Shown: positions 261-6,537 of the stretch, one piece after another
How positions within the stretch are numbered: the first letter of the stretch is position 1
Layout: the number at the start of each line of letters is the position of its first letter
Assembly: GCA_944393175.1 (NCBI GenBank)
Contig: CALXZH010000032.1
Location: 5,812-69,811, forward strand
DNA: 64,000 bases
DNA from: an uncultured Alphaproteobacteria bacterium
GTDB lineage: Bacteria; Pseudomonadota; Alphaproteobacteria; RF32; CAG-239
Reading direction: 5' to 3'
Translations under genes and position numbers: made by a program
Notes under the pieces: model-generated
Seen by the model: only the letters and a program-made list of their open reading frames with translations
What the model was told of the DNA's origin: nothing
Database searches by the model: none

Positions 261-2759
261 ATGTCTAAGCTCCTAAATCTTAAGAAAATTTTGTTGCTAG
301 GTTTCATATTTGGATTTGTATATATTCCTAATGTACAAGCTAAGGCTCATTCTGAGTATTGTGGATTTATGGAAGGTAACTTAGCTGTCTATAAAGGTAA
401 ATTGAGCTCTTCTGCCTCACATATTGCTGATAATTATGATTCTGATGCTGTAAAGGCAAAAAAGAATGAGCTTAAAAAAACAGAAGACAAAATTAAAGAT
501 TTTTGTGAAAAATTAGATGATTATCTGGGCGATATTGACGATGATAAGAAGTATAAAAATTTTGATGATAATGTATATCGCAAACAAGGTTTTTTCAAAA
601 CAAAAGATATTGAAGACTACGATATGTATCTTCAGCGTTTTGAAAAGATATTAGCTCATCATCCTGAGTTTAAAAAAGAATATGATGCTTTACAAGCTGA
701 GCATAATAAAATATATAGCGAAGTTCAACAACTTGAAGATGAACAACTTAATAAACATAACTCTGCAATTACTTCAGGAGAATACCAGCCTTGCGGTGAA
801 CAATATCCCTTTGGTTGTCCTCAAGGACAGAGTTGCTTTTGGAAAGAAGATCGTCAACTGGTTGTTGGAAACAGAGATGCTAATTATCAAGATGGTGGAA
901 CAGTTAGAACAAAAAAAGCAATTTGTTTAGATCCAAACAGTAAAGAAGCAAAATCTTTAGTAGCTGTTAAGCAAGGTGAAGATACTTATACTATGGTTGA
1001 AAACACCAGTTGGGGCGTCCTTCCTAATGCCAGACAAGTGACTTCTGTTACAGATGAAAAGGGCGAGGTAACCGTAACAACTGTCGGAGATTCGGTTATC
1101 TCTCGCGGAGATAATTCTGCTTGTAATATCCCTACTATGCAAAATATGTATCAATCCTCTTGTTATTCTTGCAGAATTATCTTAACTCTTATTACTACTT
1201 TTATGAATGCCTGCGGAAAAGTTTATGATTTAACCAGAGATGCAGGAAGTAAAATATTGGTCATCGGTTCAATGCTGTGGTTGGCCGTATTTGCATTAAA
1301 GCTCGTTTCTTCTCTGACTAATCAAGAGCCTATGAGCATTGTAAATGATTTATTTATCTTTATGTTCAAAGTGGCAGCAGCTTATATCACCATAAACGTC
1401 GGTATCGGGGCTATCGTGGATTTATTTATTAATCCTTTATTGGGGGCCGGTGCCGATTATGGGCTCGGTCTGCTACAAGCGGCAAATCAAGGACTTATTA
1501 AAGTTGCTTTGACATCCCACTATCCTTATCAAGGAACGGAAGTTATATCCTCTAATACTATTGATAAACTTATGGCTTTAACCGAGGGTATTGACAAAAC
1601 CGTCTCAACCAATTTGGTTATCGGCCATGCACTGACTTGTCATGCTTTCCATGCCGGAATGATTACATTATTTGATCCGGGAAAAGAGTTTGCTATTCCT
1701 GTAACTATACGAATGCCAGATATTTGGATTTGGCTGTGCGGTGCGGCAATTTGGTTTTGCGGTTTTTGCCTTACTTTGGCTATCGGCTATTATCTGCTTG
1801 ATGTATGCTTTAAAATCGGCTTTTGTGTTATGGCTTTGCCTATTGTTATCGGTTTATGGCCTTTCGGGCCGACAAGCAGCAAATTTAAAGCTTGCATGAG
1901 TATTATTATTCGCTCCTCGGCCTTGTTTGCCTTTCTTGCTTTGGTGGTTAGTTATGCCTTGTCCTTAGTGAGTGCGTCTTTGGGTGATTTAACCCTGTTT
2001 TACGCAAAAATTAAGGCCGGTGATGCAGAGTGGATTTCTAACACATTTTCAATCTTTGGCAGTAGCTTTCTGCTTATCTTATTTGCCTACATTTATTCTA
2101 TACATTTGACCGGTAAGGCTAATGACACAACGGGGACATTCTTCAGTGATAATGTCTTTGGAAATGCCAGCCCTATTCACCATAAGATGACACAAATGAC
2201 TGATTTTGCTAAAAAAACAGCTATGGCTCCGGTTAAATATGCCGGTGGTGTGGTCGCTCACCAGGCCACAAGAGCTGTAGGCGGTATGGCAAAATTTGCC
2301 GTTAACAAAGCAAAAGGCATGCTCCACTCCTCTAAGTCCAATGGCGGAGGTGCCGGAGGAGCGGTTTCGGGAGCGGGAAAAGGTATGAAAGCCGCAGGAC
2401 AAGGTGTGGAGGCGGCCGGTCAAGGTATGCAAGCTGCAGGTAAAGGAATGCAAGCCGCAGGTCAAGGCATGAAAGCTGCCGGTCAAGGTATTACTCAAGC
2501 TTCGCAAGCCGCAAATGCTATTCCTATTGCCGGACAAGTCGTTGCAGCTGCCGGAGCTACCGCAGGTGCCGCCGTTCAAGCTGCCGGAGCGGCTACTCAA
2601 GCTGCCGGTAAAGGTGTTGAGGCTGCAGGAAAAGCTACAAAAGCTGCAGGTAAGGCGGTTAAAAAAGCCGGTGAAGCAACAGAAGCCGTCGGTGAAGCTA
2701 CTCAAAATGTGGAAAACGCAGTAAAGGGTAACTCAAATAAAGATAAAGATGAAGAATAG
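261..2759 (+). CDS. VirB6/TrbL-like polytopic inner-membrane T4SS protein (832 aa) with a periplasmic N-domain and a Gly/Ala/Gln-rich repetitive C-terminal tail
   Basis: RBS GGGGGAGG precedes ATG 261. Signal-like N-terminus (KKILLLGFIFGFVYIPNVQA). A block of at least 6 hydrophobic helices lies at roughly aa 300-620, as in VirB6/TrbL. The C-terminus carries AAGQGM(K/Q) repeats. It lies in a T4SS island next to a second VirB6-like gene. Confidence 0.6.
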   Translation: MSKLLNLKKILLLGFIFGFVYIPNVQAKAHSEYCGFMEGNLAVYKGKLSSSASHIADNYDSDAVKAKKNELKKTEDKIKDFCEKLDDYLGDIDDDKKYKNFDDNVYRKQGFFKTKDIEDYDMYLQRFEKILAHHPEFKKEYDALQAEHNKIYSEVQQLEDEQLNKHNSAITSGEYQPCGEQYPFGCPQGQSCFWKEDRQLVVGNRDANYQDGGTVRTKKAICLDPNSKEAKSLVAVKQGEDTYTMVENTSWGVLPNARQVTSVTDEKGEVTVTTVGDSVISRGDNSACNIPTMQNMYQSSCYSCRIILTLITTFMNACGKVYDLTRDAGSKILVIGSMLWLAVFALKLVSSLTNQEPMSIVNDLFIFMFKVAAAYITINVGIGAIVDLFINPLLGAGADYGLGLLQAANQGLIKVALTSHYPYQGTEVISSNTIDKLMALTEGIDKTVSTNLVIGHALTCHAFHAGMITLFDPGKEFAIPVTIRMPDIWIWLCGAAIWFCGFCLTLAIGYYLLDVCFKIGFCVMALPIVIGLWPFGPTSSKFKACMSIIIRSSALFAFLALVVSYALSLVSASLGDLTLFYAKIKAGDAEWISNTFSIFGSSFLLILFAYIYSIHLTGKANDTTGTFFSDNVFGNASPIHHKMTQMTDFAKKTAMAPVKYAGGVVAHQATRAVGGMAKFAVNKAKGMLHSSKSNGGGAGGAVSGAGKGMKAAGQGVEAAGQGMQAAGKGMQAAGQGMKAAGQGITQASQAANAIPIAGQVVAAAGATAGAAVQAAGAATQAAGKGVEAAGKATKAAGKAVKKAGEATEAVGEATQNVENAVKGNSNKDKDEE
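2381..2492 (+). repeat. About 6 tandem 18-bp (6-aa) repeats encoding (K/Q)AAGQGM within the VirB6-like tail
   Basis: Direct reading: ggtatgaaagccgcagga / caaggtgtggaggcggccggt / caaggtatgcaagctgcaggt / aaaggaatgcaagccgcaggt / caaggcatgaaagctgccggt. Confidence 0.7.
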
Positions 2760-5700: not shown

Positions 5701-6537
5701 GATCGTACGGTTACGGATGCAAACGGTAATAAAACACTGCAACATAGAACTTGGTATGGTCGAAAAGTTACCGATACTTTACAGGTTAATCCAGACGGAA
5801 CATCTAAAGTAACAAGAGCTAAGCACAACCTTATCGGCGGAAAGGCAAGTTCCGTTGAAAATGATAAGTTTATTCAAACGAAAAAAACTTATGACAAAAA
5901 CGGAAATGTCATTAAAGAAGAATCGTCAATGAATACTGCTGCCGGAAAATACTTACTTAATAAAGACGGAACCAGAAACGAAGTGGCAATATTTGCTATC
6001 AGAAACGGCAGCAATATGTCTAAAGATGATATTGATAAAGCCATTATGCAGCAAATGATGCAAGAAAGAATGGGTAATATTCCTGGGGCAGATATGAACC
6101 GAGAATTTAAAAATCGAACCATGGAAAGAACTTTGGACGCAAAAGGTCGAGAAGTCTTGACCATAAAACAGACAAATACCGATGGCTCGACCAGTATCTT
6201 CCAAATGACCAAAGGAGAAAAACGCGACCTTCTCTCTTACACGCGCATCAGCAAGAGCGGAAAAGCACAAAGTTATTCTTCGGACGGTATTGTTACCAAA
6301 AAGTCTTCTTACAGCTTGGATAAAGACGGTAAGATAAACGAAAAAACACTTAAAAATAACTATGCTTTTGCACATAGCTTTAATTCTAGTGCTACAAGAT
6401 CGATGGACTCGAATGGTAAATTTAATAAATACGTTCCCGCAGATCAAATTATGATGAGCGAAGAAGATATGCGGATGTTCCAAGAACAAATTGCTCTTTA
6501 TGGTAAAGATTCCGCCATGAGTGAATTTAATAAATAA
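2749..6537 (+). CDS. Fusion protein (1262 aa): signal/TM, M23 (LytM-type) metalloendopeptidase domain, putative lysozyme-like domain, VirB6-like polytopic membrane domain, and a C-terminal soluble extension
   Basis: M23 motifs HEGMDLAAPKGTPV (HxxxD), GGGNTIIMKHP...YMHLSEF and GMHLHFEL (HxH) at about nt 3100-3480. The segment GAFNQCWAKDTGGCSYGLSQM at about nt 3650-4160 resembles phage-tail or T4SS/T6SS-associated lysozyme folds (tentative). A dense hydrophobic block spans roughly aa 600-900. The start may be ATG 2749, which overlaps the upstream stop, or ATG 2782. Confidence 0.65.
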   Translation: MKNSHKTTGDIMVKLLNINSLLKASYKLVSLGVFSLVLLCSKDVLASGADAVAACAMKGKMTQCQINSSNTTQIYPQSRIQNIQSTGDNGCFDPMPTQVSQVREEVCLRPDSCFKYPNGQQVTVGGEVKCLRQHEGMDLAAPKGTPVTAAADGYIVTATDCYGGGGNTIIMKHPKVGGGFYTTTYMHLSEFEKSVTSKAGTSDLIAKGTRIGYVGGSSCKNGTTKQDVYGMHLHFELRDGDTGTGQILSPTCASAQALCDANAPVVAEPIVPISEPQPEVTSASASLTGCGKLYPADNLSEFHQRGESLGDAGAFNQCWAKDTGGCSYGLSQMVCYKDSSKWNNSTVAKYLQYLQKNDPAKYKALEVGGSLQTTIQTACNPSTAKTFAEKWKALAASDSTFGDSQTQYIEDNYLSYGYTLLKRAGLQTLLNRSPEVQMVILAGSVASPGAMKKNFLAVEEALKPTPIEKATDEEIITAYYNSYAEVMYASYNPKTSFEKRAAIDKQMALESLQIRKEMESGKDLNEASMAATGKRACAENESPKANVTVSLGTSSRTYIGVDYAGASAVDSSDDGERDCSVKNYRNSFQYCIFCDLFEIIFNTASVVAKKSYNTLANAVISLVCVGFALWLGLTVMQFVSSMEQKNPSILVKTILNKAFVIVLIVMILRMDSIQFFQLALEPLFNTGFRLAQFVMAGEDGATCSGGYDILTEEKGAGLPSSMGVSILCSIETIQDKLLDIMALGSASICVACYIESWFNLPIFPHLGYLIIGVCLWIAAIMLMIMYPFLLVDSVLQLCVSTALLPAAIGCFAFKMTQKYVKKVWDVFLNCMFNFVFLSIILYILTNGLIDLLSDIGISANSDVMNAGNSTSYNTILTKLAWWGVAFLKLLFYMVLSWAVLGEANAFAGNFAKSLGIKDIGGKIGGLAASTTNNIAKGTVKKAFGVSAALGGKVAERGKEAFNSNIKVPYQQWRSNRRAKNIENDDRTVTDANGNKTLQHRTWYGRKVTDTLQVNPDGTSKVTRAKHNLIGGKASSVENDKFIQTKKTYDKNGNVIKEESSMNTAAGKYLLNKDGTRNEVAIFAIRNGSNMSKDDIDKAIMQQMMQERMGNIPGADMNREFKNRTMERTLDAKGREVLTIKQTNTDGSTSIFQMTKGEKRDLLSYTRISKSGKAQSYSSDGIVTKKSSYSLDKDGKINEKTLKNNYAFAHSFNSSATRSMDSNGKFNKYVPADQIMMSEEDMRMFQEQIALYGKDSAMSEFNK

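Follow-up and report, generated by a model that had tools for sequence, protein, structure and literature searches.

An extended VirB6-like protein with two predicted peptidoglycan hydrolase domains, encoded at a type IV secretion locus in an uncultured alphaproteobacterium

Introduction

How is the peptidoglycan opened for a type IV secretion system (T4SS) whose locus encodes no VirB1? This question is raised by a stretch of 64,000 nucleotides from an uncultured alphaproteobacterium (assembly GCA_944393175.1, contig CALXZH010000032.1, positions 5,812 to 69,811 of the forward strand), the whole of which is called the window in the following. It encodes a T4SS operon and, at 2749..6537, a single protein in which two hydrolase-type domains are joined to a VirB6-like membrane domain, referred to here as the fusion protein. 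VirB1-type wall opening is usually regarded as an accessory step that is loosely associated and can often be dispensed with, and how the action of VirB1 is confined to the site of assembly is not settled. A first-pass annotation, made from the letters of the window without database searches, had proposed that tethering the wall-cutting enzymes directly to the channel protein would be an unusual solution to the VirB1 function. Here, the domain content, the conservation and the genomic context of the fusion protein were analyzed, and on the basis of its sequence we consider it fairly probable that it acts as a cis-tethered wall-opening module that does the job of VirB1 and is not an addition to VirB1.

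Architecture of the fusion protein

The fusion gene and its parts are as follows, all on the + strand (aa, amino acids):

2749..6537, +, fusion gene, uninterrupted frame of 1262 aa (list of open reading frames (ORFs) and translation)
2749..2886, +, signal peptide or signal anchor at the N-terminus, aa 1-46 (hydropathy maximum, aa 21-46)
3046..3498, +, M23/LytM metallo-endopeptidase domain (predicted), aa ~100-250 (H134xxxD138, H187, H232xH234)
3601..4338, +, lysozyme-like domain of the VgrG3C/GH46-chitosanase fold, aa ~285-530 (E307-S308, D322 and GGCSYG..Q invariant)
4471..5643, +, VirB6/TrbL-type polytopic membrane domain, aa 575-965 (Pfam, paralogy, Foldseek, hhalign, hydropathy)
5701..6534, +, C-terminal beta-hairpin-repeat domain, aa ~985-1262 (AlphaFold 2 (AF2) model, predicted local distance difference test score (pLDDT) 70-87)
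6550..6585, +, candidate terminator hairpin, 16-bp stem followed by a T run (consensus scan, pattern match)

From the N- to the C-terminus, the protein is thus composed of a signal peptide, the M23 domain, the lysozyme-like domain, the polytopic VirB6/TrbL domain and a beta-rich tail, with a proline-rich linker of low model confidence after the M23 domain. The hydrophobic core of the signal region, LVSLGVFSLVLLC, is followed by VLA/SG, and the N-termini of the homologues begin at the equivalent of M12 in the alignment; from the letters, the signal sequence is presumably cleaved. Nineteen cysteines, 16 of them invariant, are present in the presumably exported 571 residues and none in the C-terminal 359 residues. 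Such a cysteine-rich N-terminal region, compared with a cysteine-free C-terminus, fits an oxidising, periplasmic site for the hydrolases.

The C-terminal domain is rich in lysine and arginine and resembles the single-layer sheets of OspA and Rhs proteins (Foldseek). In relatives, this tail scores as Bflower_2/DUF3659, a repeat type that is also found on the VirB10 of this window. Its side of the membrane can be read in two ways: the model with seven helices, the lysine-rich loop at residues 813-825 and the lack of cysteines suggest that it is cytoplasmic, and the related beta-flower repeats of VirB10, which sit after an N-terminal signal-like helix, suggest that it is periplasmic.

Predicted catalytic residues of the two hydrolase-type domains

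The M23 domain was recognized by Pfam (Peptidase_M23, PF01551) at aa 133-240 with an E-value of 9e-19 and 67.9 bits, compared to a gathering score of 28.7. The motifs that had been quoted for an unmistakable M23/LytM endopeptidase at the start of the gene are present in the translation (H134-E-G-M-D138, H187-L-S-E-F and H232-L-H234-F-E-L), and H134/D138, H187 and H232/H234 are in register with the solved enzymes 3slu, 6muk and 5j1l. A loss of catalytic residues on careful alignment, which the first-pass annotation had named as one of two points that would refute its proposal, was not observed: H134, D138, H187, H232 and H234 are unchanged in 13 homologues, down to 37% identity. Moreover, the M23 part shows the beta-sheet fold of M23 enzymes in the fold test. 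The LytM domains of EnvC and DipM are among the best structural matches; the LytM domain of PrgK and Brucella SagA are found among the structural matches as well. The M23 domain is a predicted, intact-looking endopeptidase of the active type, which would cut the peptide cross-links. A degenerate LytM regulator was considered as a candidate and ruled out by the invariance of the catalytic residues.

For the segment behind the M23 domain, a likeness to phage-tail and secretion-associated lysozymes had been noted. The motif in question, G324-G-C-S-Y-G-L-S-Q-M, is present, and Pfam assigns T6SS_VgrG3-like_C (PF21277) to aa 320-491 (E 1e-11, 45.7 bits compared to a gathering score of 27), a domain that is also precomputed in nearly all homologues of the fusion protein. 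In the fold test it shares the fold of VgrG3C, the C-terminal domain of VgrG3. The family profile of the domain reaches VgrG3C in the PDB sequences at an E-value of 0.008, and phmmer with the single lysozyme-like segment against the same sequences gave chance matches only. A BLASTP comparison with the N174 chitosanase of Streptomyces, done with an approximate query, gave a weak, collinear match (E 0.02) that leaves the catalytic region unaligned and that was not used as evidence. Across 10 divergent sequences E307 and D322-x-GG(C/V)SYGxxQ are constant, and the spacing of E307 and D322 is presumably like that of the Glu/Asp pair of the GH46 enzymes. This muramidase-like domain of the VgrG3C/GH46 fold would cut the glycan strands. 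For VgrG3, D842A is an inactive allele (PMC11323562).

No SLT/GH23 domain (PF01464) was found in the fusion protein at E<=0.01 (Pfam). Lacking this domain, and being a polytopic membrane protein instead of a stand-alone soluble one, the fusion protein is not a member of the VirB1 family.

The membrane domain and the tandem VirB6 array

The polytopic VirB6 part described in the first-pass annotation was recovered both by fold and by profile comparison. The Pfam match to TrbL/VirB6 (PF04610) covers aa 756-861 with an E-value of 4e-5 and 23.9 bits, just below the gathering score of 25.9. PF04610 is recorded for the close homologues P0004, P0007, P0056, P0081, P0086 and P0087, and it matches 9 of 25 more distant relatives with a best E-value of 1e-10. 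About seven hydrophobic membrane helices are predicted by hydropathy, and Foldseek with the membrane domain returned the TrwI/VirB6 chains of R388 (7o3v, 8rt9 and 8rtd) with probabilities of 0.9-1.0 and TM-scores of 0.49-0.58, matches at probability 1.0 having TM-scores of 0.55-0.58. Furthermore, hhalign of the membrane-domain alignment with a plasmid-encoded ‘type IV secretion system protein’ of Erythrobacter resulted in 97% probability at E 1e-10 over 246 columns; this protein itself scores 28.6 bits for TrbL, i.e., above the threshold. The aligned columns take in a CxxC motif. In the fusion protein, C579..C591xxC594 (C-x11-C-x2-C, window 4483-4530) lies just ahead of the first membrane helix; the motif is invariant across the paralogues, including the upstream gene described below, and across 25 distant family members, and the Erythrobacter protein has it as well (‘SACWGCELY’). 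With phmmer, the membrane domain alone gave chance matches only in the PDB sequences, and a word-index search with its alignment returned only orthologues of the upstream paralogue. By these comparisons, we assign the membrane domain to the VirB6/TrbL superfamily, in which it is divergent and belongs with the ‘extended VirB6’ proteins.

The paralogue precedes the fusion gene directly:

261..2759, +, extended VirB6-like paralogue, 832 aa, no hydrolase domains (BLASTP, helix profile)

Its end overlaps the start of the fusion gene by 11 nt, its product matches the membrane domain of the fusion protein in BLASTP with E 2e-12 over ~380 aa, and its orthologue on the sister contig L002 has a weak TrbL match. 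On L001 and L002, the array is complete and consists of genes for 921-1028 aa, 438-443 aa and 635-802 aa with the fusion gene in last position; TrbL matches fall on the first and third of these genes, one of them above threshold, and the complete array contains three TrbL-matching genes. The designation of the fusion gene as the second VirB6-like gene consequently holds within the window, and in the complete operon it is the last of a longer array. The candidate terminator hairpin lies 13 nt past the stop codon of the fusion gene, which closes the VirB6-array operon. The C-terminal tail of the 832-aa protein (window 2380-2491) is an Ala/Gly/Lys/Gln-rich repeat (‘AAGQGMQAAGKGM...’) encoded by a 21/42-bp tandem repeat and is unlike the beta-rich tail of the fusion protein.

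Conservation of the fusion and the wider family

The identical fusion protein is encoded on contigs from independent samples, and about 90 full-length homologue clusters with 54-70% identity, plus one at 34%, have the same length and domain content; one homologue cluster comprises 1956 member sequences. Among named genomes, a homologue was found only in a metagenome-assembled genome labelled ‘uncultured Alphaproteobacteria bacterium’. An assembly chimera, which had been named as a possible source of the fusion, is ruled out by the identical protein on independent contigs together with the ~90 clusters of the same architecture. The homologues of the VirB4 of this locus at 81-93% identity all come from metagenome-assembled genomes labelled Alphaproteobacteria or Pseudomonadota bacterium. 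Their entries are mostly without a name; at NCBI they are hypothetical proteins, and one JGI entry is called VirB4.

A search of 1.84 billion representatives with the membrane-domain profile yielded 1557 clusters at E<=1e-3, 593 of them at E<=1e-30. Domains were counted in the best 150 of the 1557 clusters with family-specific hidden Markov models (HMMs). Of these 150, 55 have an M23 domain N-terminal to the membrane domain, and 48 of the 55 keep all three catalytic motifs. Pfam was additionally run on 25 further members with long N-terminal extensions, yielding 6 more M23 matches and 2 SLT matches, so that at least 61 of the 150 best clusters have M23 ahead of the membrane domain. A VgrG3C-like domain is present in 9 of the 150 (in 7 alongside M23), an SLT domain in the second slot in at least 3 of the 150, and the C-terminal beta-rich domain is common to 89 of the 150 family representatives.

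The members with SLT domains differ in their arrangement. P0192 consists of M23 (aa 127-237), SLT (aa 356-407) and VirB6 (from aa 598), P0176 of M23, SLT (aa 578-641) and VirB6 (from aa 701), and P0197 of SLT and VirB6. In P0192 and P0176 the SLT domain lies between M23 and VirB6, which shows that this slot holds either a VirB1-type enzyme or a VgrG3C-like domain. In the PLSDB plasmids, no equivalent of the M23 plus lysozyme module was found; M23-only matches reach at most 32% identity and none covers >=80% of the query, and a search with the VirB6 part gave a single weak match. In the literature searched, which was partial, no description of a VirB6 fusion with M23, LytM or a peptidoglycan hydrolase was found. 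The joining of VirB6 with hydrolases described in the first-pass annotation is upheld, and it is no one-off: the architecture is widespread in a large uncharacterised family.

The T4SS operon and the missing virB1

The further T4SS components of the window are encoded on the opposite strand:

13855..43791, -, T4SS operon of the fusion protein (Pfam scans)
14836-20205, -, VirB10/TrbI, 1789 aa
20168-24091, -, 1307-aa protein of the same repeats as VirB10, between virB9 and virB10
24088-25731, -, VirB9/CagX with C-terminal SPOR peptidoglycan-binding domain (24.8 bits compared to a gathering score of 21)
25748-26479 and 26801-27559, -, two VirB8
42989-43444 and 43453-43791, -, two VirB2

VirB2, B4, B8, B9, B10 and B11 share the window with the fusion gene. 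The operon starts with the two VirB2, a 1022-aa coiled-coil membrane protein, a 123-aa membrane protein, which is a VirB3 candidate by position only, and VirB4; it continues with four genes without assignment, one of them for 1654 aa, the two VirB8 and VirB9/CagX-SPOR, and it ends with the 1307-aa beta-flower/RHS protein, the 1789-aa VirB10 and VirB11. With the SPOR domain on VirB9, the outer-membrane core may be attached to the very wall on which the VirB6-borne hydrolases would act. VirB9 and VirB10, together with a secretin encoded next to the operon, indicate a host with an outer membrane, i.e., with two membranes. In VirB10, the ~1400 residues before the TrbI domain are composed of beta-flower (Bflower_2, 11 copies), DUF3659 and RHS repeats, and the DNA of virB10 and of the gene for the 1307-aa protein has a tandem periodicity of 51 and 153 bp.

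The first-pass annotation had noted the lack of a virB1 in this locus, and the scans agree. In the larger ORFs (>=100 aa) that were scanned throughout the 64-kb window, Pfam gave no SLT/VirB1 match; the five genes located in the additional 8.3 kb upstream on L002 gave none either. A VirD4 or a relaxase was not seen among the larger ORFs of the window either.

Proposed function and alternative explanations

The gene product would be an ‘extended VirB6’ subunit of a large chromosomal T4SS in a two-membrane alphaproteobacterium. Its first ~570 residues would be exported to the periplasm, carrying the two tandem peptidoglycan hydrolases, and both enzymes would be covalently held by the VirB6 domain at the base of the inner-membrane channel. 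Its most likely role would be to open the cell’s own wall exactly at the assembly site of the machine, as soluble VirB1 does in classical Gram-negative systems. This proposal builds on the intact active sites under purifying selection, the periplasmic signature and the lack of virB1 in the locus. Further support comes from the missing immunity-type neighbour, from the exchange for SLT that is seen in relatives and from the precedent of anchored hydrolases in Gram-positive systems. The relatives with a genuine SLT domain in the corresponding position support tethered wall cutting in place of VirB1, without proving it.

Several points weigh against this proposal. The function is a prediction, and the host is uncultured. 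E307/D322 is a putative catalytic pair, and its equivalence to D842 of VgrG3 is likewise putative; the GH46-like domain could have a substrate other than peptidoglycan, and VgrG3C, to which the lysozyme-like domain is closest among characterised proteins, is an antibacterial toxin and not an assembly factor. The TrbL score of the fusion protein itself is 2 bits under the Pfam threshold, and the membrane domain was modelled by AF2 with a pLDDT of 50-65, which makes the structural match to TrwI suggestive and not firm. Finally, the inspected part of the genome is ~72 kb, and lytic transglycosylases of the housekeeping or the unlinked specialised type occur commonly.

The toxin relationship leads to the alternative that the hydrolase module on this structural subunit is a weapon, which after proteolytic release or extension through the channel cuts the wall of a contacted bacterium. 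The VirB6 analogue DotA occupies the central axis of the Dot/Icm machine (PMC12857230), peptidoglycan hydrolases are among the cargo of T4SSs that kill bacteria (PMC6536674), the pairing of a lysozyme with an M23 enzyme recalls phage tail lysins, and, with neither VirD4 nor relaxase seen in the window, the substrate of the T4SS is not fixed. However, the module is N-terminal to a membrane domain of seven helices and would be exported to the producer’s own periplasm, so that it would meet the producer’s wall first. No small immunity-type gene adjoins the fusion gene in any of the four contigs examined (the window, L001, L002 and L003), there is no evidence of a processing site in the fusion protein, and relatives carry in the corresponding slot SLT, the typical enzyme of assembly, making this alternative unlikely. 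A combination, in which the N-terminal module works on the own wall and, after cleavage or by passage through the channel from its place on the central VirB6 stalk, also breaches the wall of a contacted bacterium, appears still more doubtful. If it were true, the fusion protein would correspond, within a T4SS, to the VgrG3 effector on its spike or to the lysins of phage tails, and a structural T4SS subunit would double as a wall-penetrating device used for delivery between bacteria where these Alphaproteobacteria live.

We give little probability to a structural or regulatory role, in which the domains bind peptidoglycan as an anchor or activate other hydrolases like the degenerate LytM proteins EnvC and NlpD. 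It would agree with the EnvC and DipM domains among the best structural matches and with the SPOR domain of VirB9, which already binds peptidoglycan and indicates that anchoring to the wall matters in this system; for Gram-positive systems, inactive VirB1 homologues were proposed to act as adhesins (PMC12857230). The degenerate LytM factors have lost their zinc-binding and catalytic residues, whereas those of the M23 domain are invariant here and kept in 48 of 55 distant members, and the lysozyme-like domain has an equally invariant Glu/Asp pair. It would also be rather surprising if the hydrolases only supplemented an unlinked VirB1-type lytic transglycosylase, providing extra cutting for an unusually large machine. 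Such a gene might lie beyond the ~72 kb, as the virB1 proposed for Rickettsia is unlinked to the rvh genes (PMC2653234), and the components are indeed giant (VirB10 with 1789 aa and proteins of 1307, 1654 and 1022 aa). Yet the scans gave no positive evidence of a separate virB1, and the SLT domain built into some relatives suggests that the fusion protein itself is the glycan-cutting enzyme of the system.

If the fusion protein acts as a tethered replacement of VirB1, it would assign a concrete function to one of the enigmatic N-terminal extensions of the ‘extended VirB6’ proteins. A large natural family with hydrolases joined to VirB6, in the combinations M23 plus SLT, M23 plus VgrG3C-like or M23 alone, would speak for cutting at the channel base in the inner membrane, and the pair of peptidase and glycosidase, thought to be typical of Gram-positive systems, would be used in two-membrane bacteria. 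The family thereby lends itself, as a natural experiment, to asking at which site and in what way T4SSs open their own wall. Moreover, an abundant and entirely unannotated T4SS of uncultured Alphaproteobacteria is brought to attention.

Neighbouring genes

Further genes surround the fusion gene and the T4SS operon:

6649-7677, +, 342-aa protein with two HTH_3 domains
7831-11016, +, 1061-aa, extremely acidic protein
44119-55797, +, type IVb-pilus cluster adjoining the T4SS operon (Pfam scans)
57068-59953, +, VWA-domain protein, PP2C phosphatase and Ser/Thr protein kinase in a row

The gene for the double HTH_3 protein lies directly downstream of the fusion gene in all four contigs, and its product is a candidate for a dedicated regulator. 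The 1061-aa protein has a run of 12 lysines and is probably disordered. Its gene contains an 81-bp repeat in 4.5 copies (10345-10705), translated as ‘QDWEWDYEEVPEEQASASENxDE’. Neither a Pfam match nor a membrane helix was found, and a role as effector or DNA mimic is conceivable. The pilus cluster encodes a TcpQ-like protein, the secretin, a PilO-like protein, a T2SSE ATPase, a T2SSF platform protein, a bundlin-like pilin and a second ATPase, in a layout which we take to be like that of the accessory thin pilus of R64. The row of genes past the pilus cluster is possibly a signalling module.

Comparison with known systems

The main VirB1 proteins of Gram-negative systems are soluble SLT proteins (PMC12857230). 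VirB1 of Agrobacterium and Brucella (‘GAMMA class’) is likewise a presumed local opener of the peptidoglycan encoded in the T4SS locus, and relatives of the fusion protein have the SLT domain type of VirB1 at the corresponding position. In contrast to soluble VirB1 with its SLT domain, the fusion protein carries its hydrolases on the N-terminus of VirB6 and combines a glycosidase fold with M23, without SLT. Brucella abortus SagA (PDB 7DNP), a muramidase that aids the VirB T4SS, is separate, soluble and encoded away from virB, and it is a weaker structural match to the fusion protein than VgrG3C or the GH46 chitosanases.

A related solution is known from Gram-positive T4SSs, in which membrane-anchored multi-domain hydrolases with LytM, SLT, CHAP or muramidase domains serve as VirB1 equivalents (PMC12857230). 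By this definition, proteins of the PrgK/TraG type likewise provide a membrane-tethered peptidase and glycan hydrolase encoded in the T4SS locus (PMC12857230). However, PrgK of pCF10 (LytM, SLT and CHAP), TraG of pIP501 and Orf14 of Tn916 have a single anchor and are apart from the VirB6 homologue (PrgH, others), and they act in hosts with one membrane, whereas the fusion protein belongs to a host with an outer membrane, would use VirB6 as its anchor and has a VgrG3C/GH46-like glycosidase domain.

The C-terminal domain of Vibrio cholerae VgrG3 (PDB 4NOO, 4NSO) is a lysozyme-like effector borne on the spike of a type VI secretion system (T6SS); VgrG3 is injected into prey and has TsiV3/TsaB as its immunity protein. 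The fusion protein, by contrast, is an inner-membrane subunit of a T4SS and has neither a VgrG spike nor an adjacent immunity gene; its neighbours are the VirB6 paralogue and the HTH regulator, and, unlike that of VgrG3, its lysozyme-like domain would face the periplasm of the producer.

By gene layout, the locus resembles the rvh T4SS of Rickettsiales, in which tandem large VirB6-like genes with long extensions (RvhB6a-e) are found as they are here. The rvh system has duplicated scaffold genes (PMC2653234), which the two VirB8 and the VirB6 paralogues of this locus recall. Hydrolase domains in the RvhB6 extensions are not mentioned in that work, and the VirB1 proposed for Rickettsia is a separate, unlinked SLT protein (PMC2653234). 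As a summary, the fusion protein combines known kinds of components and is best filed as VirB6 and VirB1-like functions fused in a two-membrane bacterium.

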